DNA from: Thermoflexia bacterium
Lineage (GTDB): Bacteria > Chloroflexota > Anaerolineae > B4-G1 > DUEL01
Assembly (NCBI GenBank): GCA_011192125.1
Contig: DUEL01000055.1
Span: 5,770 to 69,769, forward strand
Length of the DNA: 64,000 nucleotides
Reading direction: 5' to 3'
Part shown: positions 1 through 53,145 of the stretch, piece after piece
Layout: every line of letters begins with the position of its first letter
Numbering within the stretch: position 1 is the first letter of the stretch
Notes under the pieces: generated by a model
Seen by the model: only the letters and a program-made list of their open reading frames with translations
What the model was told of the DNA's origin: nothing
Database searches by the model: none
Position numbers and translations under genes: made by a program

Positions 1-34
1 CAGCGGGATGCTGGCTAGATGGAGGGGTTAGGGA

Positions 35-1441: not shown

Positions 1442-1522
1442 TGCAGTGAGATCTTTCAAACCGGGCATATTTAAGTCCGGATTGGCTGTTGAGCTTGGTG
1501 AAATTTGTAGGATAGAGAATCT

Positions 1523-2845: not shown

Positions 2846-2869
2846 GGTAAATCTGGGAAAGGATGGCTG

Positions 2870-6297: not shown

Positions 6298-6332
6298 CGC
6301 CGACATTGATATTGGTACAAGGAGGGGGAGAT

Positions 6333-7376: not shown

Positions 7377-7378
7377 GT

Positions 7379-8494
7379 ATGGGAATACGAATCCTATCGG
7401 TCTTTGGCACCCGTCCTGAGGCCATCAAGATGGCCCCGGTGATATGGGAATTGCAGAAATATCCCGACCGTATCGAGTCGCGGGTCTGTGTCACTGCACA
7501 GCATCGAGAGATGTTGGATCAGGTGTTGGGGGTATTTCGGATCACACCCGATATAGATTTGAATTTGATGCAGCCGGCACAGACGCTCCCGGAGCTAACA
7601 ACCCGAGTAGTCGCCGGGATAACGGAGGTCTTGGAGCGAGAAAGGCCAGACTGCGTACTTGTTCAGGGGGATACGACGACGGTTATGGCCACTGCTTTAG
7701 CAGCTTTTTATAGAAAGGTACCAGTTGGGCACATTGAGGCTGGCTTGCGCACATATGATCGTTATAGCCCTTTCCCTGAGGAAATTAATCGGCGCATCAC
7801 CGATGTGCTTGCTACCTTTTGCTTTGCACCGACTCGTGCGGCTGCCGAAGCCCTACGCCGGGAGGGCATATCGGATAGAGACATCTATGTGACTGGCAAC
7901 ACGGTTATCGACGCGCTCCTGTGGGCTGTACGCCAACCCGAGCCCCCCGATGTTGCCAAACTGGCAAGTAGACTTGATGGACAGAAGTTGGTTTTGGTGA
8001 CTGCCCACCGCCGAGAGAATTTCGGAGCGCCTCTGGAGGAGATATGCCTAGGGCTGCGTGAACTGGCCCGCCGCAATCCGCAAATCGCTATCGTCTATCC
8101 TGTTCACCTGAATCCCAATGTACAGGAACCTGTTCATCGGATTCTGCAGGGCGAGGAGCGCATTTATTTGATTTCCCCCTTGTCATATCTCTCCTTTGCT
8201 CACTTGATGAATCGGGCCGATGTGATTCTGACCGATTCTGGGGGGATTCAGGAAGAGGCACCTGCTCTTGGCAAGCCGGTCTTGGTAGTGCGCGAGGAGA
8301 CCGAGCGACCAGAGGCAATAGAGGCCGGGGTTGCCAAGCTGGTCGAGATCGATGCACATGTGATCGTTCAGGAAGTGGAACGTCTGCTCTACGATGAGCA
8401 AGCCTATCGGCAGATGGCCAATGCTGTGAGCCCGTTTGGAGACGGCCATGCCGCCGAGCGGATCGTGCGAATCCTCTTGGAACGCTTGAAATGA
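7379..8494 (+). CDS. wecB: UDP-N-acetylglucosamine 2-epimerase (non-hydrolysing)
   Basis: MGIRILSVFGTRPEAIKMAPV N-terminus and overall WecB/MnaA pattern (HRREN, DSGGIQEEA). Confidence 0.85.
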   Translation: MGIRILSVFGTRPEAIKMAPVIWELQKYPDRIESRVCVTAQHREMLDQVLGVFRITPDIDLNLMQPAQTLPELTTRVVAGITEVLERERPDCVLVQGDTTTVMATALAAFYRKVPVGHIEAGLRTYDRYSPFPEEINRRITDVLATFCFAPTRAAAEALRREGISDRDIYVTGNTVIDALLWAVRQPEPPDVAKLASRLDGQKLVLVTAHRRENFGAPLEEICLGLRELARRNPQIAIVYPVHLNPNVQEPVHRILQGEERIYLISPLSYLSFAHLMNRADVILTDSGGIQEEAPALGKPVLVVREETERPEAIEAGVAKLVEIDAHVIVQEVERLLYDEQAYRQMANAVSPFGDGHAAERIVRILLERLK

Positions 8495-8549
8495 GGTCTT
8501 TAGCTCTGTTGGAAATGTATGCGATTACCGGCTATTAAGGGGAGAGGTT

Positions 8550-10019
8550 ATGGAACTCAAGGTTCGGACCTTAGAGGCTGGTCGGGCTGTACGGGGTAGA
8601 ATACGACAAATTACCTCTGTCCTTCATTGGCCCCTTCCTCTCTCTGAGCGCCGGCTCCTTCTCCTCTTTGGTGATGTAGTGGCGGTCTGCGGCGCGGTGT
8701 TAATTGCACTTCGGCTGTGGGCCTGGGCCGGTGGCCATCCGTTTGGAGTTGCCTTTATCCGCCCTCGCTGGTTCTGGTTTCCCTCCCTCTTGGGAGCGTG
8801 GGGACTTCTTGCTTGGCTCACTGACCTATACGACGTGCCTACCGCCAACCGACGTTCTGAGGTGCCCCAGCGAGTGGCCCTGGCTCTCTTAGAGCTGACG
8901 GCAGGCTATCTGGCATTATATTTCTTCCTCCCACGCAATGCGCTACCGCGCCTTTTTTATCTCTTCTTTGCCGTGGTTGCTATGATCAGCGTTACGATGT
9001 GGCGATGGGCTTATGCCACCCTTTTTACTCTTCCTCCGTTGCGACGTCGGATCCTTATCGTGGGCGCAGGTTGGGCCGGGCGTGTTCTTGCCCAAGCCCT
9101 CGTCAACCAGGAACAGGCAGACTACCACGTGGTCGGCTTCGTGGATGATGACCCGGCCAAGCAAGGGACAAAGGTCGCGGGACTGCCTGTCCTGGGGGGA
9201 AGCGCGGAGATGCTGAGGCTGGTACGCCGGTATCGGGTAGACGATGTTGTACTTGCCATCACCCATGAGCTGCGCGGGGAGCTCTTTCAGGCGTTGTTGG
9301 ATTGTCAAGCGGTAGGAGTTCATATGATTCACATGCCGGATCTGTATGAGCAGCTCACCCGCCAGGTACCCGTGGAACACGTGGACGAGGGCTGGGTCCT
9401 TGGAGCATTGAATGGTTTTCCCTCCCCTGGTCACTTGGAACGGGCGGCACGGCGTCTGCTGGATTTGTTTTGTGGATCGCTCGGGCTAATTGGCCTGGGT
9501 TGTCTGCTCCCTTTTATCTGCCTGGCTATCTACCTAGACGATGGCGGCCCAGTCTTCTACACACAAGTACGCGCAGGGCTGGGAGGGCGGCCGTTCCGTG
9601 TGATCAAGTTTCGCACGATGCGGACCGATGCGGAGCCGGATGGTCGCCCCCGATGGGCGCGGGAGGGTGATGACCGGGCCACCCGAGTGGGTCGCATTCT
9701 GCGCAAAACCCGCCTGGATGAGCTCCCCCAGGTGATCAACATCTTGCGGGGAGAGATGAGCGTCGTCGGCCCCCGGCCGGAGCGGCCTGAATTCATCGCT
9801 GAACTGGAGAAACAGATACCTTTCTATCGAGCCCGCCTGGTGGTCAAGCCTGGGCTCACCGGGTGGGCGCAGATCCATTATGGCTATGGTAACAGTGTGA
9901 AGGATGCTCTGATCAAGTTGCAATACGACCTGTATTACATCCGCCATCGGTCCCTCTGGCTTGATCTATATGTGATCTTCAAGACCGTCGGGGTGGTATT
10001 ACGGGGAAGTGGCATCTGA
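8550..10019 (+). CDS. Polyprenyl-phosphate glycosyl-1-phosphate transferase (WbaP/PssY-like initiating sugar transferase with CoA-binding domain)
   Basis: N-terminal TM segments, central Rossmann (ILIVGAGWAGR), C-terminal bacterial sugar transferase motifs (KFRTM, DELPQ, MSVVGPRPE). Confidence 0.8.
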   Translation: MELKVRTLEAGRAVRGRIRQITSVLHWPLPLSERRLLLLFGDVVAVCGAVLIALRLWAWAGGHPFGVAFIRPRWFWFPSLLGAWGLLAWLTDLYDVPTANRRSEVPQRVALALLELTAGYLALYFFLPRNALPRLFYLFFAVVAMISVTMWRWAYATLFTLPPLRRRILIVGAGWAGRVLAQALVNQEQADYHVVGFVDDDPAKQGTKVAGLPVLGGSAEMLRLVRRYRVDDVVLAITHELRGELFQALLDCQAVGVHMIHMPDLYEQLTRQVPVEHVDEGWVLGALNGFPSPGHLERAARRLLDLFCGSLGLIGLGCLLPFICLAIYLDDGGPVFYTQVRAGLGGRPFRVIKFRTMRTDAEPDGRPRWAREGDDRATRVGRILRKTRLDELPQVINILRGEMSVVGPRPERPEFIAELEKQIPFYRARLVVKPGLTGWAQIHYGYGNSVKDALIKLQYDLYYIRHRSLWLDLYVIFKTVGVVLRGSGI

Positions 10020-10101
10020 TTTGGGCTATCCCTTCACTGGGATGATTAGACTAGGGAAGAGGCGAGAAGGTGAAAGGGAAAGAAGAGGTGTGAAAGAGCG
10101 C

Positions 10102-11475
10102 GTGAGCGATGAACAATCTCAGGCGCGAAGGGGTCGGCATTGGACCCTCGCGTTGCTCCTGACGCTTGCGCTGGTTCGGGGCTGTCTGTATATGACGGTG
10201 GTCCCTCCTTGGCAGGCACCAGACGAGACTGGTCACTTTGAGTATGCCTGGCTTATTGCCCGCTTGGGATGTCTGCCTACCTCCGATGACCTCTCTTCGG
10301 GTTTCGAGCAGGAACTCCTGGCCTCTCTCTATGAATGGCGCTATGGTGATTTCATTGATCGGCCTCTGCCCGAGCGTATGCCCGCCCAAATGCACGATCT
10401 GCCGGCTCAGATATTTGCCGCTCGCTCGCGGACGGTCATACCCCAGCGCTTTTCTCTTGCCTATCTCTGGCAGGCCTTGTTCATATGGCCGTTTCGGCAT
10501 CAAGATTTGGTCTTTCAATTATATGCTGCTCGTTTCTCGTCGGTCGTTCTGAACCTTGCCGTTGTCTGGCTAGCCTGGTGTATCTTTCATCGCTTGGTCC
10601 CCCGGGCGTGGGCAGTGGCGATGACGGCCTTTGTGGTCTTCTTGCCCCAGCACACGTTCATTAATACCGCAGTAAATGAAGGGCCACTCACGGAACTTGC
10701 TGCTTGTGTAGTACTCTACGCCTGGCTGTGTGTAGTGCAAGATGGAGCCTCTGTGAGGAGCATTGCAGCCGTGCTTGGAGGCACAGTTATCGGGATATGG
10801 ACCAAGAAGACAGCGCTGTTCTTGATCCCTCTGGACTTATTGATGCTCGCGTTCCTGGGGATCGCTCGGTTCAGGGGAGCGGCTCGAAGCCGGGGATTGA
10901 GAGTGCTGGGGTTGCTGGTTGTGTTGGCTGGTAGCCTCGCGGCGATCGTCTCGCAGACGGCTATGGGGCGGGAGGTGTTCACGATCCTTGCACGCTGGTG
11001 GTCAACCCCCCAGTTCTATCTGGAGAACGAGCGTGTGTCGATCGGGCGGGTGCTGTGGCGCACCTTAGATAGTTTCTGGGCTCAATTCGGTTGGATGAGT
11101 GTGCGCGCTGGATACGGCTGGTATGTAGCGATTTATCTCCTCACCGTGCTGGCTTTCGAGGGTTGGCTCCTTCCTCGCTCCAATGAGTGCTCAGCATCAG
11201 TGGAGACGAAGGTAGTAATGGGAGGAGCATTGCTATTAGCCCCGGTGGTGTGGTTGACTTTCGTGGTTACCATACCAAACGGCCTGGCATATTACCAAGG
11301 GCGCTATCTGTTCCCTGTGGTTGTTCCGATCGCTTTCTATTTGGTGGGCGGATGGGCTCGCTGGACACCGCCCCGCTTTCGACGATATGCTCCGTTGGGC
11401 GTCGTGGTATTGTTGGTTGTCCTAGACGCCACAGTGTGGTTCCTGAGTATGTGGCCTTATTTCTATGTCCGATAG
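10102..11475 (+). CDS. Polytopic membrane protein, possible GT-C/DUF2142-like glycosyltransferase; start uncertain (ORF opens at 10009; GTG 10102 chosen)
   Basis: About 11 hydrophobic helices; conserved-looking PPWQAPDETGHFEYA loop; purine-rich RBS region upstream of 10102. Confidence 0.45.
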   Translation: MSDEQSQARRGRHWTLALLLTLALVRGCLYMTVVPPWQAPDETGHFEYAWLIARLGCLPTSDDLSSGFEQELLASLYEWRYGDFIDRPLPERMPAQMHDLPAQIFAARSRTVIPQRFSLAYLWQALFIWPFRHQDLVFQLYAARFSSVVLNLAVVWLAWCIFHRLVPRAWAVAMTAFVVFLPQHTFINTAVNEGPLTELAACVVLYAWLCVVQDGASVRSIAAVLGGTVIGIWTKKTALFLIPLDLLMLAFLGIARFRGAARSRGLRVLGLLVVLAGSLAAIVSQTAMGREVFTILARWWSTPQFYLENERVSIGRVLWRTLDSFWAQFGWMSVRAGYGWYVAIYLLTVLAFEGWLLPRSNECSASVETKVVMGGALLLAPVVWLTFVVTIPNGLAYYQGRYLFPVVVPIAFYLVGGWARWTPPRFRRYAPLGVVVLLVVLDATVWFLSMWPYFYVR

Positions 11476-11524
11476 GTCCGTCTTAGGAAACGAGCAGTTC
11501 CCGCACTGTCAGGGAGGGTCGGCT

Positions 11525-12964
11525 ATGAAAAGGATATTGGCTGCCATAGGTTTTGCGGTGTTAGGTATCACCCTATTGCTTGTCGCGGGTAGGGAGGTAT
11601 GGGCGGTGGTTCCCGCTGGTGATCAGAGGCCGTCCTGGCACGTACAGGAGCAGACATCCACAGTTTATCTCCCCCTCGTTGTGCGTCGCTATGATCCCAC
11701 TTATGTCTCTCCCTTTGGCATCGTGATGTATGGCAGGGTGGACGACGCCTCTGGCCTTCAGGTAATGAAGGACGCGGGAAGCAAGTGGGTAACCACAATA
11801 TTGCGCTGGTCCGACATCGAATCCACAGAAGGTTCCTATGACTGGTCGAGTTTTGATACCAAGGCCCAAAATGCCCAGGCGGCGGGAATGGAAGTCTTTG
11901 TCCTCTTCACAGGTAATCCGCCCTGGGCAGCCGCCCTTCCTGGTGGTCCGGTGACCGATACTCAGGACCTAGTGAGCTTTGTCACCATGATGGTTGAGCG
12001 ATACGACTGCGACGGGGTGAACGATGCCCCAGGCTCGCCCTGTGTGCACTACTGGTCCTTCTACGCTGAGCCGGATAACGGGGATATTAACCGGGCTCGA
12101 GCAGGGAAAGGATACTGGGGACACGATGGCGCGGGGTATGCTGCGATGCTGTCTCAGGTCTCGCCTGCCATTCATGCTGCCAGTCCGCGCGCGAAGGTGC
12201 TTATTGGTGGCATAGCCTACGACTACTTCGAGCCGGATGGTCCTTTCGTTCGATCCTTCCTTACAGATACACTCTCAGCGCTTAACACCTATCCGGGCGG
12301 GGCTGGAGCGTACATTGATGCTGTAGCCTTTCATTACTATCCTATCAATCCAGCGTGGTCCTCCATCCGTGAAAAAGCTATGGAGATTCGGAGCATTATG
12401 GAACGGCATGGGGTGGGCGATCTCCCGATGATCTGCCCGGAGATGGGGTACTGGAGCGCGGAGGAGGCGGGTAGCAGTGAGGCGATCCAGGCGCGACGCC
12501 TAGTGCAGATGTTTGTCCGCGGCATATCCGTAGGACTTGAGCATATGTCCTGGTTCACCGTCTTTGATGCCTCGCCGGAACAGGTAGCCCAATACCCCAC
12601 TGAGGAGCACGGGCTGTTCCCGTACAACGATCTGACGCACCCCAAGCAGTCTTACTATGCGTACCAGACGCTGACTCAGGAGCTGTATGGAGCTCGTTAT
12701 CTACAGCCACTGGGAACATCCAATGCCGAGGGATATGTCTTCCAGACGCTCGACGGCTACGAGAAAACGGTCCTCTGGGCCACAGTCTCTTCCACTTCGG
12801 TCTCCTTCCCCTACTCGTGTCTGCGTTTAGTAGACACAACCGGCAACGTCTACAGTCCGGTCTACGATGGGGATCCCACCTGGGACTGGGATGGGACGGT
12901 GAACGGTGAGATCGCATTGGGGGTGTATCGGGACACGCCGTTTTATGTTGAGCCTTGTCACTAG
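11525..12964 (+). CDS. Secreted glycoside hydrolase-like protein (TIM-barrel glycanase, GH5/GH39-like)
   Basis: Signal peptide MKRILAAIGFAVLGITLLLVA; RBS GGGAGGG 6 nt upstream; embedded in EPS cluster; NPPW-type segments. Confidence 0.5.
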   Translation: MKRILAAIGFAVLGITLLLVAGREVWAVVPAGDQRPSWHVQEQTSTVYLPLVVRRYDPTYVSPFGIVMYGRVDDASGLQVMKDAGSKWVTTILRWSDIESTEGSYDWSSFDTKAQNAQAAGMEVFVLFTGNPPWAAALPGGPVTDTQDLVSFVTMMVERYDCDGVNDAPGSPCVHYWSFYAEPDNGDINRARAGKGYWGHDGAGYAAMLSQVSPAIHAASPRAKVLIGGIAYDYFEPDGPFVRSFLTDTLSALNTYPGGAGAYIDAVAFHYYPINPAWSSIREKAMEIRSIMERHGVGDLPMICPEMGYWSAEEAGSSEAIQARRLVQMFVRGISVGLEHMSWFTVFDASPEQVAQYPTEEHGLFPYNDLTHPKQSYYAYQTLTQELYGARYLQPLGTSNAEGYVFQTLDGYEKTVLWATVSSTSVSFPYSCLRLVDTTGNVYSPVYDGDPTWDWDGTVNGEIALGVYRDTPFYVEPCH

Positions 12965-12965
12965 C

Positions 12966-13679
12966 ATGGCAAGTAAGTGGCGCGCGCGTCTGTGGGCCTT
13001 GGTCGGCACCACTTTGGTCGCGGTCCTTGGCCTGGTAGGGGTGTCAAAGACGATCTCAGCGGTGGAGACGGCACAACCGCAGGCTTCCACTGTGGTGGGA
13101 GAGCTGGTGAAGGGAACCGAGGTCTGCCAGACGTTCGTCGCCGAATATTCCAATCTCCAGACCGTCTGGGTCAGGATGGGTACCTATGGACGGGAGAACA
13201 CCGGCCCTGTGATCTTCCGTCTGAACGATTCTTCCGAGGCCTCTGAAGAATGGGTCTCCCTTACGATCGATGCTTCGGAGGTGGAGGACAACGTCTATCA
13301 TCCTTTCGCGTTCCCGCCAATTCAGGATGCTTCCGGGCGCTCGTTTTCCTTCTGCCTAGAAGCGCCGGAGGCGGAGCCAGGGAACGCCATCACCGTGTGG
13401 GGGGTGGAGTACGATCTATATCCCGAGGGGAGGGCTTCGCTGAGGGGGCTGGGTGAGCAGGTCGTGCAGGATCTGACGTTCCGTTTGGAATACGAGCCGA
13501 CGCTAAGGGTAAGGTTCGAGGCCTTTTGGGAACGGCTGGCGGAGGGGAAGCCTTCGGGGTGGGGTGACCGTAGGTTCTACCTTGTCCTGCTTGCCCTGTA
13601 TTTGTTCCTCTTGTATGAACTGTTCGTGCAGATGGCGGGTGTTGTGAGAGAAGGGGAGAAAGATGGGCCGAAGAGATAA
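12966..13679 (+). CDS. Hypothetical membrane-anchored protein (N- and C-terminal TM segments)
   Basis: ORF with TM helices at both ends; no recognisable catalytic motif; no clear RBS. Confidence 0.35.
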   Translation: MASKWRARLWALVGTTLVAVLGLVGVSKTISAVETAQPQASTVVGELVKGTEVCQTFVAEYSNLQTVWVRMGTYGRENTGPVIFRLNDSSEASEEWVSLTIDASEVEDNVYHPFAFPPIQDASGRSFSFCLEAPEAEPGNAITVWGVEYDLYPEGRASLRGLGEQVVQDLTFRLEYEPTLRVRFEAFWERLAEGKPSGWGDRRFYLVLLALYLFLLYELFVQMAGVVREGEKDGPKR

Positions 13680-14017
13680 AGATTGGCGTTTCGGTCAGGA
13701 TGTGTTATCATGCAACGCGGGCCACCTGCGGGCCCGTGTTATGGGTTATGGAGAGAGGAACGCCCGACCCGGAGAGCGGTTGCGAGATCGGCGTGCTGGT
13801 CTGTTCCTCACTTACTGATGTTGCAGACTCGCTTGAGTCATTGATACCGGTGCTGTATGTGGGAATCTTCAGCGGGTAGGTGATCTCCGCTAGTTCGGGG
13901 ATCCTGTCCGCAGAAGGCTGAGGGTACGACTTGAGCACAGCGATCCGGAGCAGGAGGTGACCCTTCGCCTCTTCCGCTACAGCGTTGTGGGCACTCCCAG
14001 CGGTATAACGGACTCCA

Positions 14018-15649
14018 TCACCCCCGCCACGCCCGGGTCAACGCTACCTGGGCTGCGTAAGCCTCGACCTGGCGTGTTACCTCCGCCTCGTCCCACCCCA
14101 GGCGTGGGGCCATCACCTGGGCGACGGCCCGCGCCCGCTCCAGCCCGCCGTCCCGCGCCTCGTAGATGACGTGGGTGCGGCGGATCAGGACGTCGTTCAG
14201 CGTGACCGCCATCTCATGTTGCACGGCGTAGAGGGCCTCTGCCATCAGGTAGGGCAGCTCCGGCGCGATCCGCTCCCCCAGCGCCGGATTCTCCTCCACA
14301 TAGGCCATCACCCAGGCTGCGCTGGCTCCGTAGGTGTTGACCAGGTAGGTGTGGACCGCCTCGTCGCCGAGGACCGCCTCCGGCCGCGCCCGCTCCGCCC
14401 CCGGGATCGGCTCCCGCGTGCAGCAGGGGCGTCGCGCCTCCACGCCGAACTCCTCTGCCAGCCGTCGTTCCACCCGGTCCACGATCTGCTCCGCCATCAG
14501 TCGGGCGGTGGTCAGTTTCCCACCCGCCACGGTGATCAGGCCGGAGGGGCTCTCCAGGATCTGGTGCTCGCGGGAGAGGGCGTAGGTCCCACCTTCCGCG
14601 TACAAGAGCGGCCGCAGCCCGGCGTAGGTGCTGACCACGTCCTCCGGCCCGACCTGCGCGCCGGGGAACACGTAGGCCAGCGCCTCCAGCAGGTACTCCA
14701 CGTCCTCCCACGAGGCCGCCGGACTGTCCAGATCGCCCTCGTAATCGGTGTCGGTCGTGCCGACGATGGCGAGCTCCCGCCAGGGGAAGAGGAAGACGTG
14801 GCGGCCGTCGCGAGGGGAGTCGAAAGCGATGGCGTGCTGGGTGGGAAGCCGGTGGCGGGGAATGAGCAGGTGGATCCCCTTTGTGGGGCGGACGGTACGT
14901 CCCCTGAAGTGCTCGTCCGCCTGTCGGACCGTGTCCACCCAGACGCCTGTGGCGTTGACCACCACCCGCGCTCGCACCTCGATCTCCGCCCCCCCGATCC
15001 GGTCCCGCACCACTGCCCCGCACACCCGCCCTTTGGCCTGGAGGAGGTCTATGACCTGGGCGTAGTTGGTCACCACGGCCCCCTCGCGGTGAGCGGCACG
15101 GGCCACTTCCATTGTCAGACGGGCGTCGTCCACCTGGGCATCGTAGAACCGGGCCGCGCCCAACAACCCCCGCCCGCCTAGCAACGGCTCTCGTCGGGCT
15201 ACCTCTTCGGGCTCCAGCCAGCGGTGGCGCTGTACGTTGCGGAAGAGGCTCAACGCGTCGTACAGGGTGAGGCCCAGGCGGAGTTTCCACGGGGCCGGCG
15301 TCTGACCGCGGTAGAGCGGGTAGAGGAAGGGGAGAGGGCGCACCAGACGGGGGGCTATCCTCCGCATCACCCGGCGTTCGTTGCAGCACCGGAAGACCAG
15401 GCTGACCTGGTAGTTCTCCAGATACCGGAGCCCTCCGTGGATCATCCGGGACGACCGGCTGCTGGTCCCCTGGGCGAAATCCCCCTTCTCGACCAGCGCG
15501 GTGCGGAAGCCCCGCATCGCCGCGTCCCGCGCCACCGAGACGCCGGTGATGCCCCCGCCGATGACCAACACGTCGAAGATCTCCGCCGCCAACTGTTCCA
15601 GGTTCTCCTTCCGGGTCGCGGCGGAGAAGGGACGCGGGGACGACTCCAT
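14018..15649 (-). CDS. glpA: FAD-dependent glycerol-3-phosphate dehydrogenase (GlpA/GlpD family)
   Basis: DVLVIGGGITGVSVARDAAMRGF...GTSSRSSRMIHGGLRYLE; start set at internal ATG 15649; the upstream 158 codons of the ORF are GC-rich read-through with no homology pattern. Confidence 0.8.
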   Translation of the reverse strand: MESSPRPFSAATRKENLEQLAAEIFDVLVIGGGITGVSVARDAAMRGFRTALVEKGDFAQGTSSRSSRMIHGGLRYLENYQVSLVFRCCNERRVMRRIAPRLVRPLPFLYPLYRGQTPAPWKLRLGLTLYDALSLFRNVQRHRWLEPEEVARREPLLGGRGLLGAARFYDAQVDDARLTMEVARAAHREGAVVTNYAQVIDLLQAKGRVCGAVVRDRIGGAEIEVRARVVVNATGVWVDTVRQADEHFRGRTVRPTKGIHLLIPRHRLPTQHAIAFDSPRDGRHVFLFPWRELAIVGTTDTDYEGDLDSPAASWEDVEYLLEALAYVFPGAQVGPEDVVSTYAGLRPLLYAEGGTYALSREHQILESPSGLITVAGGKLTTARLMAEQIVDRVERRLAEEFGVEARRPCCTREPIPGAERARPEAVLGDEAVHTYLVNTYGASAAWVMAYVEENPALGERIAPELPYLMAEALYAVQHEMAVTLNDVLIRRTHVIYEARDGGLERARAVAQVMAPRLGWDEAEVTRQVEAYAAQVALTRAWRG

Positions 15650-15657
15650 CTCCCCTC

Positions 15658-17325
15658 CTAGAGCCCGAGTACGCCGGGGTTCATCACCCCTGCGGGGTCC
15701 AAGGCCTTCTTCAGGACCTGCAGGATCCGGACCCCGATCGGGCCGGCCTCCTGGGCCAGCCAGGGCGCGTGGTCCCGACCGATGCCGTGGTGGTGGCTGA
15801 GGACCCCACCGGCAGAGAGGACCGCTTCCGTCGCCGCCCGCTTCACCTCCCACCACTGCTCTACCTCCCGCCCCGAAGCCTGCCGTCCCAGGAAGGTGGT
15901 ATAAAGAGAGGCTCCCTCTTCGTAGATGTGGGAGATATGGGTCATCACGTACCCCGGTCCTCCCTCGCTGGCCCGGATCGCAGCCCGAATAGCGGTGGTC
16001 ATTTCCTCGTAGAGGTGAAGCAGGTTCGACCAGGAGGTCGCTGTCTCGACCGTGTCCACCATCACGCCGAACCCGAGGAGGGTGTCGCGCAGATACGGGT
16101 GGGCGAACCGGTCCCGCTTCCACGACTCTCCGGCGGACCGACCGAGGGGGAACCCGCCGTGGTCCCTACAGATCTCCTCGGCACGTCGCCACCGCCGCGC
16201 GACGCGGGCTACCGCGCCGTCGTATCCCAGCAGGAGGAAACAACTCCCCTCTGGACCCAGCCGGTATCCCCGGCGGGCGAGGTATCCCTCTAGGCCCCGC
16301 TCGATCAGACCACGGAGACCGCGGTGTTCGTGGGCGAGCGCGATGGAGGCCGCTGTCTCAGGACCGTCGGAGAGGCGGGCGATGGTGGGGCGAGGGCCGC
16401 GGTGCATCAGATCTCGCAACGCAGCGATCCCATCCTCCAGGGTGCGGAAGAGGAACCCCCGATAGTCCTGTACCTGGGGCCGGGGGCGGATCCGCATCGT
16501 CGCCTCGGTGATGACGCCGTACGCCCCTTCCGAGCCCACGATGACGTCCAGCAGGCTGGGGCCAGTGGCGACGGCGGGGACTTCCTGCGCCTCCAGGATC
16601 CCCACCGGCGTGACCAGCCGGGCTGCCAGGGTCATCTGTTCGATCTTGCCGTAGCCCGTGGAGGTCTGTCCGGCTCCGCGGGTGGCGATCCATCCGCCGA
16701 GGGTGGAGAACTCGAACGACTGGGGGAAGTGGCCCAGCGTGAAGCCATGCTCCCCCAATTGCGCCTCTACCTCCGGTCCCGTGGCCCCGGCCTGGATGCG
16801 GGCGGTCCACGACTCTCGATCCACCGCCACCAGCCGGTCCAGCCGGGCCATATCCAGCGTGATCACGGGCCGATCCCCCGGCGGCGGCTCCACGGCTCCC
16901 AGCACCGTGCTCCCTCCGCCGAAGGGGACGACCACCACGTCTCGATCGGCGGCCCAGGCCAGCACTGCCGCCACCTGTCCCTCGTCGGCGGGATAGACTA
17001 TCGCGTCGGGCGGGTTGGGGACCTGACCAGCGCGCACTCGCACCAGGTCCCGGTACGCCTTACCACAGGCGTGCTCTACCCTAGCCCGTCGATCCGTCCG
17101 CACTCCCTCCTCGCCGACGATCCGCCGGAGGGAGGCCAACATCGGATCATCCAGACGGGGCGGGCGGAGATCGATCTCCTCGAGGGGGACCGGGGGACGC
17201 TCCCTCAGTTCCTCCGGCAGTTCCAGCCAGGCCCGCAAGGTCGGCCAGAAACGGGGCCTGCCCTCCAGAGGAAACGTGCGGTCCAGCGTTCCCCATCCCC
17301 ACCACCGGAGGTTTGGAATGTCCAT
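15658..17325 (-). CDS. FAD-linked oxidase of the alkyldihydroxyacetone-phosphate synthase (AGPS) type
   Basis: N-terminal NLRWWGWG motif; PCMH FAD domain (VVPFGGGSTVLGA); C-terminal LSHHHGIGRDHA (HHH loop); start set at ATG 17325 (MDIPNLRWWGWG); stop 9 nt before glpA start. Confidence 0.6.
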   Translation of the reverse strand: MDIPNLRWWGWGTLDRTFPLEGRPRFWPTLRAWLELPEELRERPPVPLEEIDLRPPRLDDPMLASLRRIVGEEGVRTDRRARVEHACGKAYRDLVRVRAGQVPNPPDAIVYPADEGQVAAVLAWAADRDVVVVPFGGGSTVLGAVEPPPGDRPVITLDMARLDRLVAVDRESWTARIQAGATGPEVEAQLGEHGFTLGHFPQSFEFSTLGGWIATRGAGQTSTGYGKIEQMTLAARLVTPVGILEAQEVPAVATGPSLLDVIVGSEGAYGVITEATMRIRPRPQVQDYRGFLFRTLEDGIAALRDLMHRGPRPTIARLSDGPETAASIALAHEHRGLRGLIERGLEGYLARRGYRLGPEGSCFLLLGYDGAVARVARRWRRAEEICRDHGGFPLGRSAGESWKRDRFAHPYLRDTLLGFGVMVDTVETATSWSNLLHLYEEMTTAIRAAIRASEGGPGYVMTHISHIYEEGASLYTTFLGRQASGREVEQWWEVKRAATEAVLSAGGVLSHHHGIGRDHAPWLAQEAGPIGVRILQVLKKALDPAGVMNPGVLGL

Positions 17326-17541
17326 GCAGGCTTTCACCCCTGGCGAGACTGGACAAGAAGCGATCAAAAGGGAACCCGCCGGTTCGGGTCCCCGCTGGAT
17401 AGTGTACCCCAGAACTCCGTCCGGCGCAACTGTTGGGTTGCTGACCTTTGGACATCTGAACCTTAAGTTGGAGTGCTTGCGCCCCATTTCAGTTCCGGTA
17501 TACTCAGGAGCGATGGCGTAGGCTCAGGAACGGAGGAGGAG

Positions 17542-18510
17542 ATGAACAATCTTTTGCCAGCAGGTATCACGGCCGTTCCAGGTATTCGCGTCGGTCACGC
17601 TACCGATTTGGAAGGGCTGACTGGCTGCACCGTCGTGCTCTGTGAGAAGGGGGCCGTCGGCGGGGTGGATCAGCGCGGGGGCGCGCCGGGCACCCGTGAG
17701 ACCGACCTCCTGCGCCCGATGCACCTGGTGGAGAAGGTCCACGCCGTGCTGCTGGCCGGGGGCTCTGCCTTCGGCCTGGCCGCCGCCGACGGCGTGGTCC
17801 GTTATCTGGAGGAGCGCGGGGTCGGCTTCGACGCCCGGGTGGCGAAGGTGCCGATCGTGCCCGCAGCCATCCTGTTCGACCTAGATTTGGGGGACCCCGG
17901 CACCCGGCCCGACGCGGCGATGGGGTATGCCGCCTGCGAGGCCGCCGACGACGGGCCGGTGATGGAGGGGAACGTCGGTGTCGGGACCGGCGCGACGGCA
18001 GGGAAGATCCTGGGGATCGGCCGGGCGATGAAGTCGGGCCTGGGCACGGCTGCTTTCAACCTGGGCGGCGGGCTGGTGGTCGGTGCGCTGGTCGCCGCCA
18101 ATCCCCTCGGCGACATCGTCGATCCGGAGACCGGGGAGGTACTGGCCGGGGTTCGGAGACCCCGTGCCGATCGTCCAGGTGGGACGCTAGAGGTTATGCG
18201 TTCCCTCCTGGGCAAGGCTATTCTCCGTTTTGCCTCCAGCACGGTCATCGGCGTCGTGGCGACCAACGCGCGGTTGACCAAGGAAGAGGCCAACAAGGTC
18301 GCGCAGATGGCCCAGGATGGGATCGCCCGCGCGGTCCGTCCGGCCCATACCCTGTTTGATGGGGATACCCTTTTCGCACTTTCTACCGGCAACAAACGGG
18401 CCGACGTCAACCTGGTCGGGGCCTACGCCGCCGAGGCGGTCGCTATGGCGATCGCTCGGGCAGCGCGGGCTGCGGAAGGGGTCGGTGGCCTCCCCGCCTG
18501 GCGGGATTAG
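17542..18510 (+). CDS. DmpA/OAT-type peptidase (S58 family L-aminopeptidase/D-Ala-esterase)
   Basis: ITAVPGIRVGHATD...TGCTVVLCEKGAVGGVDQRGGAPGTRETDLL; RBS GGAGGAGGAG before ATG 17542. Confidence 0.75.
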   Translation: MNNLLPAGITAVPGIRVGHATDLEGLTGCTVVLCEKGAVGGVDQRGGAPGTRETDLLRPMHLVEKVHAVLLAGGSAFGLAAADGVVRYLEERGVGFDARVAKVPIVPAAILFDLDLGDPGTRPDAAMGYAACEAADDGPVMEGNVGVGTGATAGKILGIGRAMKSGLGTAAFNLGGGLVVGALVAANPLGDIVDPETGEVLAGVRRPRADRPGGTLEVMRSLLGKAILRFASSTVIGVVATNARLTKEEANKVAQMAQDGIARAVRPAHTLFDGDTLFALSTGNKRADVNLVGAYAAEAVAMAIARAARAAEGVGGLPAWRD

Positions 18511-18585
18511 AACACCACAGAGAGGCACAGAAGATCTTTGTTCTTTATTTGAAACTCTGTGCTCTCTGCGCCTCTGTGGTGTCCC
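18511..18585 (+). repeat. Dispersed imperfect-palindromic intergenic element, copy A (3' core CTCTGCGCCTCTGTGGTG)
   Basis: caccacagagaggcacagaag...ctctgtgctctctgcgcctctgtggtg; followed by promoter-like TTGACA-17-TATCAT at 18591..18619. Confidence 0.55.
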
Positions 18586-18590
18586 CCGCG

Positions 18591-18619
18591 TTGACAACCG
18601 CTGGAGTCGGTGCTATCAT
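18591..18619 (+). promoter_or_regulatory. Sigma70-like promoter (TTGACA-17-TATCAT) for the TP-rich protein gene
   Basis: ttgaca accgctggagtcggtgc tatcat, 18 nt upstream of ATG 18637. Confidence 0.35.
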
Positions 18620-18636
18620 AGCCCCGGAGTTCGACG

Positions 18637-19137
18637 ATGAGAGAAACCCGTCCGATCCATCTTGCCCTGATCGCCATCATCCTGCTGACGCTGCCTTGCT
18701 ACTGCACGGGGTTTGCCCTTCTCTATGCTCTCTCCACCACTGCTCAACCCACCCCGACGCCGACGCCGACGGTCGCCACCGACACGCCTACTCCGCCCCC
18801 GGCCTCGCCAACCCATACCCTTGAGCCGACGCCGACCCAGTGGTTCCCGCCGACCGAGACCCCGACGCCCACGGATACGCCGACGCCGTCGGCCACGCCG
18901 ACGCTCACCCCCACCTCCACCGCCACGCCGACCCTCACGCCGACGATGACCTCCACGCCGACTCCGACCAACACGCCTACGCCCACCCTCACCGCTTCCC
19001 CGACCCCCACCGACACGTCCACTCCTACTCCTACCTCCACTTCGACCCCCACGCCGAGTCCCACGCTCACCGTCACTCCGACCCCCACCTTCACGCCCAC
19101 ACCGACCATCACCGCGACGGTCCCGATCACCCCTTGA
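18637..19137 (+). CDS. Membrane-anchored or secreted Thr/Pro-rich low-complexity protein (PT-linker/mucin-like)
   Basis: Hydrophobic N-terminus [17 protein letters not shown] then about 120 aa of (T/S)PT(P/D)T repeats; promoter-like and RBS signals upstream; antisense RG/GV-rich ORFs judged artefacts. Confidence 0.5.
18740..19130 (+). repeat. Tandem codon-level repeat (ACN-CCN-ACN-CCG units) encoding the TP-rich tract
   Basis: Visible periodicity ccgacgccgacgccgac / acgccgaccctcacgccgacg throughout the interval. Confidence 0.7.
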
Positions 19138-19163
19138 GCGCAATCGTAAGGAGAGACTTCGGT

Positions 19164-20213
19164 ATGGAGACGATCCCCCTGTTGAGGGAACTTTCGGAAA
19201 CCCCCGGTTTGGCTGGTCACGAAGGGCCGATCCGGGACCTCGTCCGGCGGTTGTGGTCCCCTCTGGTGGACGAACTTCGCGAGGACGGGCTAGGGAGCCT
19301 CATTGGCACGAAGCAGGGGACGGGCCCCGAGCCGCGTCCTCGGCTGATGCTGGCTGTCCATATGGACGAGATCGGCCTGCGGGTGACGGGGATCGAGAAA
19401 GGTTTCCTGCGTGTCACCCGCCTTGGCGGGACCGACCGGCGGGTACTTCCGGGAGCGGCTGTTGTGGTTCACGGCAAGAAGGACCTCCCTGGCGTCGTTG
19501 GGATGCGACCACCCCATGTGGTTCCCAAAGAGCAGCGGAAGAAGCCAGTCCCGTGGGAGGAACTGTTCGTGGATGTGGGGTTGTCGGAAGAGGAGATACG
19601 GAGGTGGGTCCGTGTGGGCGACCCCATTTCCTTTGACCGGGAATTGGTCGAACTGAAGAACGGCCTGGTAGCCGGAAAAGCGCTGGACAACCGGGCATCG
19701 GTAGCGGCGCTGACGCTGGCGCTGGAGGAGTTGAGCCGTACCCAGCACGCCTGGGACGTGGTGGCCGTGGCGACGGTGCAGGAGGAGGTAGGGCTGTACG
19801 GGGCGGCGACCAGCGCGTACGGTGTGAAGCCGGACCTGGCGGTGGCGGTGGATGTGACATTTGGACGGCAGCCCGGGGTGTCTGCGGATGACTCCTTCCC
19901 GCTGGGTGAGGGGCCGACCATCAGCGTGGGACCCAATTTCCACCCGCAAGTGGTGGGACGGCTCAAAGCCGCCGCCGAGGCCCACGAGATTCCTTACCAC
20001 ATCGAGCCCACCCCCGGCCGCAGCGGTACCGACGCCTGGGCGATCCAGGTGGCCCGGGAGGGGGTCCCAACCGGCCTGATCTCCATCCCGCTCCGGTACA
20101 TGCACCAGCCGGTGGAGACGGTGGCGGTGAAGGATGTGGAGCGGGCTGCGCGGTTGCTGGCGGCCTTTGCGGCGGGGCTGGAGGCGAGTTTCCGGCCCCA
20201 GTGGGAGGAGTGA
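19164..20213 (+). CDS. M42 family metallo-aminopeptidase (FrvX/YsdC/CelM-like), copy 1
   Basis: METIPLLRELSETPGLAGHEGPIRDLV N-terminus; HMDEIGL, GKALDNRASVAA, VQEEVGLYGA motifs; start at internal ATG 19164 (upstream ORF part is His/Asp-rich frame artefact overlapping the PT gene). Confidence 0.8.
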   Translation: METIPLLRELSETPGLAGHEGPIRDLVRRLWSPLVDELREDGLGSLIGTKQGTGPEPRPRLMLAVHMDEIGLRVTGIEKGFLRVTRLGGTDRRVLPGAAVVVHGKKDLPGVVGMRPPHVVPKEQRKKPVPWEELFVDVGLSEEEIRRWVRVGDPISFDRELVELKNGLVAGKALDNRASVAALTLALEELSRTQHAWDVVAVATVQEEVGLYGAATSAYGVKPDLAVAVDVTFGRQPGVSADDSFPLGEGPTISVGPNFHPQVVGRLKAAAEAHEIPYHIEPTPGRSGTDAWAIQVAREGVPTGLISIPLRYMHQPVETVAVKDVERAARLLAAFAAGLEASFRPQWEE

Positions 20214-20267
20214 CGTGTTGTGCGGTATGTGATGCGTCATACGTCACACGTCATACGTCATGCGTCA
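20211..20267. repeat. NRCGTCA heptamer tandem array (5 copies; reverse complement of TGACGYN) between M42 copies 1 and 2
   Basis: gATGCGTCATACGTCACACGTCATACGTCATGCGTCAag; one more TGACGTG overlaps the stop codon at 20211. Confidence 0.6.
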
Positions 20268-20290
20268 AGGGTGTCGCCCTGGAGCGGAAT

Positions 20291-21325
20291 ATGATCCTGA
20301 AAGAACTCTCAGAGGCTTTCGGCCCTTCTGGCAATGAGAGGCCGGTCCGGCAGATACTGCGGCAGGCTTTGGAGGGCCACGTTGATCGGATGTGGGTCGA
20401 TGCGCTGGGTAACCTGCATACGGAGAAGCAGGGGACCGGGGAGGACCGACTGCGGGTGCTGGTGACCGCCCATATGGACGAGATCGGCCTGATGGTCGTG
20501 GGCCACGACGACGACGGCACACTGAAGGTCCGAGCCATTGGCGGGATCGATCCCCGAGTCCTGCCCGGCGCGCAGGTCCTGGTGGGACCGGACCGGCTCC
20601 CCGGTGTGATCGGCCTCAAGCCGGTCCATCTGCTGAAAGAAGGGGAGGCGGACAAAGTTGCCACCATCGACCAGTTGCGGGTGGACATCGGGGCCAAGGG
20701 GAAGGAGGAGGCGAAGAATCTGGCCCCGGTGGGGGCGGTGGTGGTGTTCGCCACGCGGTTCCGTGAGTTAGGGCCGACGGTGATGGGTAAATCGTTCGAC
20801 GATCGGGTGGGGTGCGCGGTGCTGGTGGAGCTGCTTCGTGGGGAGCGGTTCCCTCACGATCTGCATGCCGTCTTCACCGTACAGGAGGAGGTAGGGCTGC
20901 GCGGCGCGCGGGTGGCGGCCTACGCCGCCTGTCCGGATTGCGGTTTCGCGCTGGAGGGGACCATCGCCGACGACCTGCCCAAGGAGAAGGACGTCAGCCC
21001 CACTACGGAGTTGGGGAAGGGTCCGGCGATCACGGTGATGGACCGGACCTTCATCGCCCATCGGGGATTGAACCGGCTGCTGGTGGAGACGGCAGAGGAG
21101 TTGGGCATTCCCTGCCAGTTCAAACAGCCCGGCATCGGCGGCACCGATTCGGGGGCGGTCCATCTGGCCCGGGAGGGGGTCCCCTGTGCCACTGTGGCTG
21201 TCCCCTGTCGCTACATCCACAGCCCGGCCAGCCTCCTCAGCCTTGCCGACTTTGAGAACACCGTGCGGTTGATGCGGGAGGCGCTGAACCGATTGAGGCG
21301 GGAACACGTTGGATCATCTTTTTGA
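20291..21325 (+). CDS. M42 family metallo-aminopeptidase, copy 2
   Basis: MILKELSEAFGPSGNERPVRQILRQ; HMDEIGLMVV, FDDRVGCAVL, VQEEVGLRGA. Confidence 0.8.
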   Translation: MILKELSEAFGPSGNERPVRQILRQALEGHVDRMWVDALGNLHTEKQGTGEDRLRVLVTAHMDEIGLMVVGHDDDGTLKVRAIGGIDPRVLPGAQVLVGPDRLPGVIGLKPVHLLKEGEADKVATIDQLRVDIGAKGKEEAKNLAPVGAVVVFATRFRELGPTVMGKSFDDRVGCAVLVELLRGERFPHDLHAVFTVQEEVGLRGARVAAYAACPDCGFALEGTIADDLPKEKDVSPTTELGKGPAITVMDRTFIAHRGLNRLLVETAEELGIPCQFKQPGIGGTDSGAVHLAREGVPCATVAVPCRYIHSPASLLSLADFENTVRLMREALNRLRREHVGSSF

Positions 21326-21384
21326 TCGCGGAGCGCGGAGGTTCTTAGCGAAATCTTCTCCGCGTCCTCTGCGTCTCTGCAGTG
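21326..21384 (+). repeat. Dispersed element, copy B (GCGGAG...TCCTCTGCGTCTCTGCAGTG)
   Basis: gcggagcgcggaggttcttagcgaaatcttctccgcgtcctctgcgtctctgcagtg, 5' of M42 copy 3. Confidence 0.5.
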
Positions 21385-21417
21385 AAATCGGAGCGCGAAC
21401 ACAGAGGGAGAGGAGAC

Positions 21418-22398
21418 GTGAGAGACCTGATTCGCAAACTGACTGAGACCTATGGCCCTTCGGGCTTTGAGGATCGTATCCGTGCGGTGATCCGGGAGGA
21501 GGTCGAGCCGCTGGCCGACGAGGTGCGGGTAACGCCGCTGGGCAGTCTGGTGGCGGTGAAGAAAGGCACCGGCGGGGGCCGGCGGATCATGCTGGCGGCC
21601 CATATGGACGAGATCGGTGTGATGGCCAGCCACGTGGACGACAAAGGGTTCCTCCGCTTCACTGCCATCGGTGGCGTCAACCCTCTTACCTGCGTCGGAG
21701 CGCGGGTGCAGTTCGAGGACGGGACGTTGGGGGTGATCGGCGTTGAGGGGAAGCGGGAGGATCGGACGAAGGCCCCCCGCCTTGATCAGTTGTACATCGA
21801 CGTGGGGGCGACGGGTAAGGATGACTGCCCTGTGCGGGTTGGGGACGCGGCCGTCTTCGTGCGGCCCTTCGCGGTCCGGGGCACGCGGCTCATCGCTAAG
21901 GCAATGGACGACCGGATCGGCTGTGCAGTGCTGATCGAGACCCTGCGGCGGTTGGAGGGGACGTCCAACGAGGTGTATTTCGTGTTCAGTGTACAGGAGG
22001 AGACCACCCTTTCCGGGGCGCGGACGGCAGCTTATGGGATCGAGCCCGATCTGGCGATTGCGGTGGACGTGACCGGGACGGGGGACACGCCGGAGGCACG
22101 GCCGATGGCGGTGGAGTTGGGCAAGGGTCCGGCGGTGAAGGTGCAGGACCGGGGGATGATCGCCCATCCGCTGGTGCGCGACCTGCTGGTGCGGGCGGCG
22201 GAAGCGGCGGGGGTGGCCTGCCAGATGGAGGTCCTGGAGCGCGGCACCACCGACGCGGCGGCGATGCAGTTGGTGCGGGCGGGTGTTCCCTCTGGCTGTC
22301 TTTCCATCCCTTGTCGCTACGTCCACACCCCCAGCGAGATGGTGGATGAGGGGGATGTGGAAGGGGCGGTGAAGGTATTGGTCGAAGCGGTCCGATGA
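21418..22398 (+). CDS. M42 family metallo-aminopeptidase, copy 3 (GTG start at 21418 preferred; ORF opens at GTG 21382)
   Basis: RDLIRKLTETYGPSGFEDRIRAVIREE aligns with N-termini of copies 1 and 2; HMDEIGVMAS, MDDRIGCAVL, VQEETTLSGA; GGGAG 7 nt upstream of 21418. Confidence 0.75.
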   Translation: MRDLIRKLTETYGPSGFEDRIRAVIREEVEPLADEVRVTPLGSLVAVKKGTGGGRRIMLAAHMDEIGVMASHVDDKGFLRFTAIGGVNPLTCVGARVQFEDGTLGVIGVEGKREDRTKAPRLDQLYIDVGATGKDDCPVRVGDAAVFVRPFAVRGTRLIAKAMDDRIGCAVLIETLRRLEGTSNEVYFVFSVQEETTLSGARTAAYGIEPDLAIAVDVTGTGDTPEARPMAVELGKGPAVKVQDRGMIAHPLVRDLLVRAAEAAGVACQMEVLERGTTDAAAMQLVRAGVPSGCLSIPCRYVHTPSEMVDEGDVEGAVKVLVEAVR

Positions 22399-23210
22399 GA
22401 TCGGTGGAGCGGTTGAGCGAACTCTGGCGGTATCGGGAACTGATCTACAACCTGGTCATCCGCGACCTCAAGGCGCGGTACAAGAACTCCATACTGGGCA
22501 TCGCGTGGTCGTGGCTCAACCCGCTGATGATGATGGTGGTCTACACCGTCGTCTTCAACGTCCTTGCGGGCCGCTCCGGGATTCCGGACTACCCGGTCTT
22601 TCTTCTCTCGGCGCTTCTGCCGTGGAACCTGTTTGCCAACTCGGTCGCTGAAGCGACCAACAGCGTCGTCCAATCCGCCCCGCTGATCAAGAAAGTGTAC
22701 TTTCCTCGGGAGGTTCTTCCCATTTCCGTCGTGCTGGGTAACGCAGTGCACTTCGTGATTAGCCTCCCGGTCTTCTTTGGGTTAGCCCTGGCGATGGGAC
22801 GGCCGATCAGTGGGTGGGTACTTTTGTTGCCTGTGACTCTCCTCGTTCAAATCGCGTTCACGCTGGGGGTCGGGCTCATCACGGCCACGTTGAACGTCTT
22901 TTATCGGGACACCTACCTGATAATGAACGTCCTGCTCACGGCGTGGTTTTTCCTGACCCCCATTTTCTATCCCATCACCACCGTCCCGGAGCAATACGTC
23001 CTCTGGGGGATTGTGTTCAACCCTCGGGTCTGGCTGCGCCGGCTGAACCCGATGGCTTCTATCATTGCCTCTTATCAGGACCTCCTCTACTGGGGCGCGC
23101 CCACCGGTTGGGACTTCTTCTTGCGGACAGCTGTGACGTCGGTGGTGGTCCTGATCGTGGGTTACCTGGTCTTCCTACGGTATAGTCCGAGGTTTGGGGA
23201 GGAGGTGTGA
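22395..23210 (+). CDS. wzm: ABC-2 type polysaccharide export permease (Wzm/KpsM/TagG family)
   Basis: ELIYNLVIRDLKARYKNSILGIAWSWLNPLMMM signature and 6 TM helices; 4-bp overlap with M42 copy 3. Confidence 0.8.
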   Translation: MRSVERLSELWRYRELIYNLVIRDLKARYKNSILGIAWSWLNPLMMMVVYTVVFNVLAGRSGIPDYPVFLLSALLPWNLFANSVAEATNSVVQSAPLIKKVYFPREVLPISVVLGNAVHFVISLPVFFGLALAMGRPISGWVLLLPVTLLVQIAFTLGVGLITATLNVFYRDTYLIMNVLLTAWFFLTPIFYPITTVPEQYVLWGIVFNPRVWLRRLNPMASIIASYQDLLYWGAPTGWDFFLRTAVTSVVVLIVGYLVFLRYSPRFGEEV

Positions 23211-53099: not shown

Positions 53100-53130
53100 C
53101 GTGTGGCGTATGACGCTTGACGTATGACGT
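53097..53130. repeat. TGACG pentamer/heptamer tandem array (4 copies) in convergent intergenic region
   Basis: TGACGtgtggcgtaTGACGctTGACGtaTGACGtg. Confidence 0.6.
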
Positions 53131-53145
53131 GTTGCGCCTCACCCG

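Follow-up and report, generated by a model that had tools for sequence, protein, structure and literature searches.

A 64,000-nucleotide stretch of DNA from the Anaerolineae member Thermoflexia bacterium (GenBank assembly GCA_011192125.1, contig DUEL01000055.1, positions 5,770 to 69,769; hereafter, the window) carries two adjacent minus-strand genes, the first encoding a homolog of alkyl-dihydroxyacetone-phosphate synthase (AGPS, also termed ADPS) and the second a flavin adenine dinucleotide (FAD)-dependent glycerol-3-phosphate (G3P) dehydrogenase of the GlpD type. Judged from the gene order in relatives and from natural gene fusions, this pairing is real and functional, the adjacency being far beyond chance. 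We would put at about even odds (a probability of roughly 0.5) the reading that the pair handles pre-formed glycerolipid-derived substrates, that is, serves remodeling or salvage rather than the de novo ether-lipid pathway of eukaryotes and myxobacteria. This reading is favored over de novo synthesis because of the fusions, the kinase and lipid-handling neighbors of the pair in other genomes, and the placement of the window protein in a distinct clade with an altered pocket. The elements of the pair are as follows.

15658..17325, minus strand: gene for the AGPS/ADPS-like FAD enzyme (555 aa; stop codon within the coordinates)
17290..17304, minus strand: codons of the N-terminal WWGWG motif (residues 8-12)
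15787..15795, minus strand: codons of the HHH loop (His511-513, within LSHHHGIG), aligned with SHHHG of the Dictyostelium and guinea-pig ADPS
15650..15657, minus strand: intergenic spacer of 8 nt with a GGAGG-type ribosome-binding site, the sequence reading TAG-GAGGGGAG-ATG
14018..15649, minus strand: gene for the GlpD-type FAD-dependent G3P dehydrogenase (543 aa; stop codon within the coordinates)

The coding sequence of the AGPS-like protein starts with the ATG at 17325 (MDIPNLRWWGWG...) and ends with a TAG stop at 15660-15658. The original prediction, made from the sequence of the same stretch, had placed both genes correctly and had recognized the WGWG, PCMH FAD-domain and SHHHGIG features, but its 9-nt gap between the genes is in fact 8 nt long.

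Family assignment of the AGPS-like protein

Sequence comparison and structural modeling clearly assign the upstream protein to the AGPS/ADPS family and not to the GlcD/D-lactate dehydrogenase (D-LDH) type, in agreement with the original prediction. A search of all sequences in the Protein Data Bank (PDB) returned Dictyostelium ADPS (2uuu) as the top match (365 bits, E 7e-108); guinea-pig ADPS scored 252 bits, as compared with 94 bits for D-LDH and at most 94 for GlcD/2-hydroxyglutarate dehydrogenase types. In a 138-sequence alignment, the identity between the window protein and the Dictyostelium enzyme (35.8%) is on a par with that between the Dictyostelium and guinea-pig enzymes (34.0%). The Pfam domains detected are FAD_binding_4 (PF01565, 118 bits) and FAD-oxidase_C (PF02913, 134 bits).

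The catalytic set, as defined by mutagenesis, is complete. Arg317, Arg413 and Tyr475 of the window protein correspond to Arg352, Arg447 and Tyr508 of Dictyostelium ADPS, all conserved and all named as important for catalysis (PMC3509576). Among the guinea-pig equivalents are Arg419 and Tyr578, whose mutant forms, Arg419His and Tyr578Phe, have solved structures (4bc7, 4bca), and the Ser/Thr found at position 568 of that enzyme is also kept. The histidines of the HHH loop are conserved in 123-132 of the 138 representatives. As for the N-terminal WWGWG motif, Gly12 is invariant, and Gly10 and Trp11 are at least 90% conserved, in a 30-sequence family alignment, the KWWGWG form being common to homologs linked to acyltransferase genes and those linked to GlpD. 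A search with the N-terminal 71 residues against the PDB sequences, which bears on the presence of WGWG in eukaryotic ADPS, gave no match.

The AlphaFold2 model of the protein is of high confidence (pLDDT 91.9, pTM 0.90), with a lower value (pLDDT 64) in the HHH loop, as expected of a mobile loop. By Foldseek, the model aligns with ADPS structures over its full length (∼572 columns) with a TM score of 0.84-0.91, whereas D-LDH structures are matched over ∼505 columns with a query-normalized TM score of ∼0.69. The longer alignment spans the whole ADPS architecture, with the N-terminal extension that GlcD-type enzymes lack.

An alternative assignment, as a GlcD/D-LDH-type 2-hydroxyacid oxidoreductase, would have the protein act, for example, on D-lactate formed from dihydroxyacetone phosphate (DHAP) via methylglyoxal, with neighboring metallo-β-lactamase (MBL)-fold hydrolases in the role of glyoxalase II. 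The PCMH/VAO fold is indeed common to both families, the best NCBIfam match of the protein is GlcD (albeit far below threshold, 125 bits versus a cut-off of 568), and MBL-fold hydrolases adjoin the pair in several lineages. We nevertheless regard this alternative as highly improbable, given that the protein scores three to four times as high against ADPS as against D-LDH, that the fold comparison favors ADPS, and that the protein retains the HHH loop as well as the catalytic residues specific to ADPS. In the phylogenetic tree described below, E. coli GlcD takes the position of an outgroup. The placement inside the GlcD/D-LDH clades by which the original prediction could have been overturned was not seen.

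The dehydrogenase is of the GlpD type

The downstream enzyme had been called glpA-type in the original prediction, an assignment that does not stand. The protein consists of a DAO (PF01266, 206 bits) and a DAO_C (PF16901, 95.5 bits) domain, the Pfam scan detected no BFD [2Fe-2S] domain (PF04324) in it, no glpB or glpC adjoins the gene, and the score against the GlpA equivalog TIGR03377 is only 204 bits versus a cut-off of 553. Its similarity to solved enzymes of the GlpD/GlpO type is much in line with this domain composition (Bacillus GlpD 3da1, 343 bits; streptococcal GlpO, 327; E. coli GlpD, 190), and it falls just under the cut-offs of the curated GlpD equivalogs (325.5 versus 360 for PRK12266 and 304.6 versus 352 for PRK13369).

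The residues Arg54, Tyr55, His233, Thr270, Arg317 and Lys354 of E. coli GlpD, which we take to be its substrate-binding and catalytic set, correspond to Arg75, Tyr76, His260, Thr298, Arg346 and Lys378 in the window. All six positions are invariant in the 52 AGPS-linked GlpD proteins (window included) and in the three solved enzymes. The canonical enzymes (E. coli 2qcu, Bacillus 3da1 and Streptococcus GlpO 2rgh) thus share with the window protein both the DAO plus DAO_C architecture and the presumed G3P residues; the window enzyme differs from them in lying outside a glpFK context, in its slightly sub-threshold equivalog scores, and in His142.

The possibility that AGPS-linked GlpD proteins form a specialized subfamily was considered and rejected by pairwise identity, the window GlpD being 38-41% identical to the GlpD halves of the AGPS::GlpD fusions described below and 38% identical to Bacillus GlpD. 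The protein thus appears to be an ordinary GlpD by every sequence-based test available. A weak lead to a possible signature of a linked subfamily is His142 (codon near 15224-15226), which is His in 52 out of 52 AGPS-linked or AGPS-fused GlpD proteins, whereas the three solved GlpD/GlpO enzymes, the only canonical comparators, have Arg, Asn or Ser there.

Coupling of the two genes

The nearest relatives of the AGPS-like protein all come from metagenome-assembled genomes (MAGs) of Anaerolineae or Thermoflexales, with identities of up to 88-89%. To describe gene order, we used genome and metagenome loci encoding an AGPS-like protein at least 50% identical to that of the window (all counts being based on tblastn). 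In 52 out of 60 informative loci of this set, the next gene downstream is a GlpD gene in the same orientation. Further, a search of 1.8 billion cluster representatives retrieved four independent clusters of AGPS::GlpD fusions, proteins of ∼1100 aa in which the AGPS-like part is N-terminal and GlpD C-terminal, joined by a linker of 20-30 residues. Two of these clusters have source names (Fidelibacterota and Calditrichota), and three are found on at least two independent assemblies. Finally, on contigs of anaerobe type, GlpD is replaced by a GlpA-like (DAO plus BFD)/Pyr_redox_2/DUF1667 set that precedes the AGPS-like gene, a non-orthologous stand-in for the dehydrogenase. Taken with the 8-nt gap in the window, the synteny, the fusions and this replacement argue for a direct functional link, and the operonic pairing with a G3P dehydrogenase put forward in the original prediction is thereby borne out.

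Some of the loci with the replacement set also carry a kinase gene, of the FGGY family in L164 and of the YegS type in L143. Parts of the same set were observed in L155, L159 and L162, and in L161 only an FGGY-AGPS arrangement was seen. L143 and L161 are human-gut metagenome contigs. Loci of this kind place the AGPS-like/dehydrogenase module in anaerobes and gut communities as well.

On the other hand, the two enzymes could be independent, GlpD being an ordinary respiratory G3P dehydrogenase and the AGPS-like protein having an unrelated or accessory role, with co-transcription due to a shared involvement in glycerol or phospholipid turnover. The canonical active site of GlpD and the lack of a specialized subclade by pairwise identity would agree with this view, as would the retention of the AGPS-like gene without an adjacent GlpD in 8 of the 60 close relatives and the existence of bacteria that have no other glpD (PMC8151288). 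It is less easily reconciled with fusions in four lineages or with the exchange of GlpD for a non-orthologous type of G3P dehydrogenase beside the AGPS-like gene, and we consider it quite unlikely.

Phylogeny, pocket residue and the case for de novo synthesis

The hypothesis of the original prediction, which is also the model of Kotecka et al. (2021), was that of a de novo ether-lipid module: free DHAP made by GlpD would be acylated by an unlinked acyltransferase, the AGPS-like enzyme would swap the acyl group of acyl-DHAP for a fatty alcohol, and the reduction of alkyl-DHAP would lead to 1-O-alkyl glycerolipids. In favor of this hypothesis are the complete ADPS catalytic set and fold of the window protein and its tight coupling to a DHAP-producing enzyme. 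In addition, in one of the fusion loci, L080, genes for a PlsC-type acyltransferase, an SDR and an HAD hydrolase follow 2.3 kb downstream on the same strand. Metagenome studies have also described AGPS homologs in Chloroflexota and many other phyla and have interpreted them, those of Chloroflexota MAGs included, as ether-lipid potential (PMC11868695, PMC13159169). In fact, the family has thousands of homologs, and the statement in the original prediction that such a route is rare in bacteria is wrong as far as the gene family is concerned.

The phylogenetic evidence points in another direction. We built a neighbor-joining tree (100 bootstraps) of 162 AGPS-family sequences labeled by gene context. 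A clade of 18 sequences, with bootstrap support of 95% unrooted and 89% when rooted with E. coli GlcD, comprises the proven Dictyostelium and guinea-pig ADPS, an acyltransferase::AGPS fusion (P0166), 11 acyltransferase-linked homologs and four others. All 11 homologs with a PlsC-type acyltransferase gene directly upstream fall in this clade, which contains not a single GlpD- or FGGY-linked member. The window protein belongs to a separate clade of 64 members (97% support). Five alignment positions cleanly split acyltransferase-linked and eukaryotic from GlpD- and FGGY-linked sequences, the sharpest being Gln202 of the window protein. Its counterpart in the guinea-pig enzyme, Asp303, is Asp in 14 out of 14 eukaryotic and acyltransferase-linked sequences compared, whereas 79 out of 81 GlpD- or FGGY-linked sequences have Gln. 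A docking study lists Asp303 among the pocket contacts together with His616/His617, in the FAD and HHH-loop pocket (PMC13019191). Thus, the eukaryotic alkyl-DHAP synthase (EC 2.5.1.26; 2uuu, 4bby) shares with the window protein the three-part full-length fold, the Arg/Arg/Tyr residues, the HHH loop and a level of identity (31-36%) that matches the one between the two proven enzymes, but it differs in clade, in the Asp303 position and four more clade-specific substitutions, and in its partners, GNPAT and FAR (fatty-alcohol-forming reductase) instead of GlpD.

The two groups also differ in their gene context. The acyltransferase-linked clusters (L084, L092, L093, L095 and L100) combine an HMG-CoA-reductase-like or FAR-like reductase with an acyltransferase, AGPS and an SDR, the enzymes that a de novo ether-lipid route requires. 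The HMG-CoA-reductase-family genes in these acyltransferase-AGPS(-SDR) clusters (L092:1287-2495, L093:51-1028, L095:5029-6252 and L100:8721-9986) could encode a thioester-to-alcohol reductase that yields the fatty alcohol in place of FAR. In Myxococcus xanthus, MXAN_1676, the only bacterial AGPS homolog with genetic evidence, lies in an operon with a FAR/GNPAT fusion and an NAD epimerase (bioRxiv 10.1101/2025.10.10.681575). This operon (compared by its description) and the acyltransferase-linked clusters resemble the window in setting an AGPS-family gene beside an enzyme that would feed it, and the KWWGWG motif is the same in the window and in the clusters. However, their feeding steps are acyl activation, reduction and acyl transfer, none of which is represented in the window pair, where the partner is a dehydrogenase.

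In the 64-kb window as a whole, tblastn detected no homolog of an acyltransferase (DHAP acyltransferase included), FAR, SDR, alkyl-DHAP reductase, FGGY kinase or MBL protein, and the Pfam survey of 29 other ORFs described below gave no DHAP acyltransferase or fatty-alcohol source either. Acyltransferase, alcohol-forming reductase and SDR genes are likewise absent beside most GlpD-linked loci. Hence, of the acyl/alkyl-DHAP route in the original prediction, which had suggested a search for the acyltransferase and the reductase, the AGPS-family membership and the coupling to a G3P dehydrogenase hold up while the remaining steps have no counterpart in the window. A de novo role is further weakened by the observation that the acyltransferase-linked homologs hold the missing genes within their own clusters, by the position of the window protein outside the proven-ADPS clade, and by its Gln at the Asp303 position. 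Moreover, DHAP is a glycolytic intermediate and a central metabolite, which makes a dedicated, let alone fused, DHAP supplier hard to justify for biosynthesis and probably unneeded. The literature that we searched contains no report of ether lipids in Anaerolineae or Thermoflexus. Overall, de novo synthesis can be maintained as a tentative possibility, but we doubt it.

Genes found next to GlpD-linked members in other genomes are of a different type. These loci encode kinases of the FGGY family, which the NCBIfam cut-offs assign neither to GlpK nor to XylB, as well as YegS/diacylglycerol-kinase-type lipid kinases, acyl-CoA synthetase, 4HBT thioesterase, SRPBCC lipid-binding proteins and MBL hydrolases. 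Here, kinases and lipid-handling proteins take the place of acyl-activating ones. Given the kinases, the GlpD-linked type resembles a system for processing pre-formed glycerol compounds. Genes for MBL, TPR and small proteins follow the pair in one Anaerolineae subgroup and are absent from the window; as they also occur in loci that lack GlpD, their presence may be a matter of inherited gene order and not of function. In L101, L110 and L117, GlpD and a TetR gene on the minus strand are followed by AGPS-like and YegS/diacylglycerol-kinase genes on the plus strand, a layout that matches what we take to be the arrangement glpD1-Rv2250c-Rv2250A/Rv2251-Rv2252 of M. tuberculosis.

Relation to the PA3026-PA3024 module of Pseudomonas

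By gene order, the pair is one more example, in a minimal form of two genes, of the PA3026-PA3024 type of module, which is widespread in bacteria and already known, though of unproven function. In P. aeruginosa, PA3026-PA3025-PA3024 encode an AGPS-like protein, GlpD and an FGGY kinase, with a YegS-type lipid kinase (PA3023) adjoining. The AraC-type activator GliR (PA3027) raises the expression of the operon more than 100-fold, and a phospholipase C and a YegS lipid kinase are induced along with it (PMC8151288). Kotecka et al. (2021) proposed for it a conversion of glycerol to alkylglycerone phosphate and left the function open, so that the idea of the original prediction had already been put forward, without proof, for this operon (PMC8151288). 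Compared by its published description, the Pseudomonas operon has the same order as the window, with the AGPS-like gene first and GlpD next; it adds the FGGY kinase, the YegS lipid kinase and the AraC activator, whereas the window contains the two core genes only.

Proposed mechanism

Gene fusions usually join consecutive steps. In the remodeling/salvage reading, the GlpD-type enzyme would oxidize C2 of the G3P backbone of a lipid-derived substrate (candidates being 1-acyl-G3P, 1-alkyl-G3P, or G3P from lipid turnover) to a ketone, with the electrons passing to the quinone pool, and would in this way provide the DHAP-type substrate needed for AGPS chemistry. In the AGPS-like enzyme, the Tyr base would then take the C1 proton and the enolate would add to flavin N5, upon which the oxygen substituent of C1 would depart and a new oxygen nucleophile would add. 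The net result would be an exchange at the sn-1 position, with acyl or hydroxyl on the one side and alkyl on the other. The substrates and the hand-over between the enzymes are what we infer, as is the direction (ether making or ether breaking).

One version of the breaking direction is that GlpD- and kinase-linked AGPS-like enzymes are not synthases but the core of an oxygen-independent salvage or cleavage of glycerol ether (and ester) lipids. A kinase would make 1-O-alkyl-G3P, a G3P-type dehydrogenase would oxidize it to alkyl-DHAP, and an exchange with water or a fatty acid on the AGPS-like enzyme would release fatty alcohol and DHAP. We see this version as rather unlikely. The mirror image, in which DHAP would be alkylated directly and not by way of an acyl intermediate, is a further possible reading.

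Several observations weigh against remodeling or salvage. No kinase, lipase or lipid gene is found near the pair in the window, and no kinase among the window ORFs (open reading frames) scanned with Pfam. Because GlpD is fully canonical, and no closer to the fused halves than to Bacillus GlpD (38-41% versus 38%), its sequence offers no pointer to a lipid-substituted substrate. The tree is a neighbor-joining one in which the deep branching order is not settled, and one GlpD-linked locus lies beside the acyltransferase clade, with low support. Finally, deletion of PA3026-PA3024 gave no phenotype, and certain genomes may have no GlpD besides the linked one, which would fit plain G3P oxidation (PMC8151288).

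Leader and surrounding region

The minus-strand pair stands isolated. The polysaccharide cluster on one side of it ends at 13679 and the series of peptidase genes on the other starts at 17473, both being on the plus strand. Two features were noted in its 5′ leader.

17401..17429, minus strand: putative sigma-70-like promoter of the pair, TTGCGC-17 nt-TACACT, inferred from reading the sequence
17370..17393, minus strand: 9-bp GC-rich hairpin followed by TTTTGATCGC (U-run), a terminator-like match ∼45 nt before the start codon

The promoter-like block scores under the threshold of a consensus scan and is conserved in L001 and L002, the two nearest relatives. The hairpin looks, from its sequence, like a terminator or attenuator; it showed no clear conservation among the relatives compared, and a search for leader riboswitches with Rfam, covering 13400-17800, returned no match.

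Most of the window is taken up by two large polysaccharide-synthesis regions (1-13679 and 22395-51886), which contain a sugar transferase, many GT1/GT2/GT4 glycosyltransferases, several methyltransferases, a sulfotransferase and an FG-GAP repeat protein, together with a Wzm-like ABC-2 permease (22395-23210) and a Wzt-like ATPase with a Wzt_C domain (50654-51886). A 738-aa ORF at 27228-29444 (minus strand) fuses an amine-oxidase/UDP-galactopyranose-mutase-like flavin domain to a GT2 glycosyltransferase domain. The Pfam survey of the 29 other window ORFs identified only polysaccharide-synthesis genes, peptidases and transporters. The GC content of the polysaccharide regions (0.51-0.63) is below that of the 14-22 kb segment with the pair and the peptidases (0.65-0.69). 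The peptidase genes, divergent from the pair at 17473-22398, comprise an S58 (DmpA-type) peptidase gene and three tandem M42 aminopeptidase paralogs; such a set is in keeping with the proteolytic way of life reported for relatives of Thermoflexus (PMC8129789).

In the closest relatives (L001, L002 and L005), the genes directly downstream of GlpD belong to the clusters c24, c15, c25, c26 and c27, the window copies of which are found at 52227-57208, ∼38 kb from the pair. The pair has therefore been parted from its ancestral neighbors, either through a rearrangement or because the glycan cluster was inserted.

Implications

Non-isoprenoid ether lipids serve as environmental and palaeoclimate biomarkers, and their bacterial producers and biosynthetic routes are debated. 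At present, AGPS homologs in MAGs are tallied as "ether-lipid potential". By our tree and context analysis, a large share of the bacterial AGPS-like genes, those of Anaerolineae included, falls in GlpD- or kinase-linked clades apart from the proven enzymes; as these clades are separate and differ in a pocket residue, such counts may mislead. We know of no enzyme for the turnover of ether lipids without oxygen, and a remodeling or degradation route of the type considered here, if true, would be a candidate answer. The fusions and the cultivable carriers (certainly Pseudomonas, possibly Thermoflexus) make the module directly testable.

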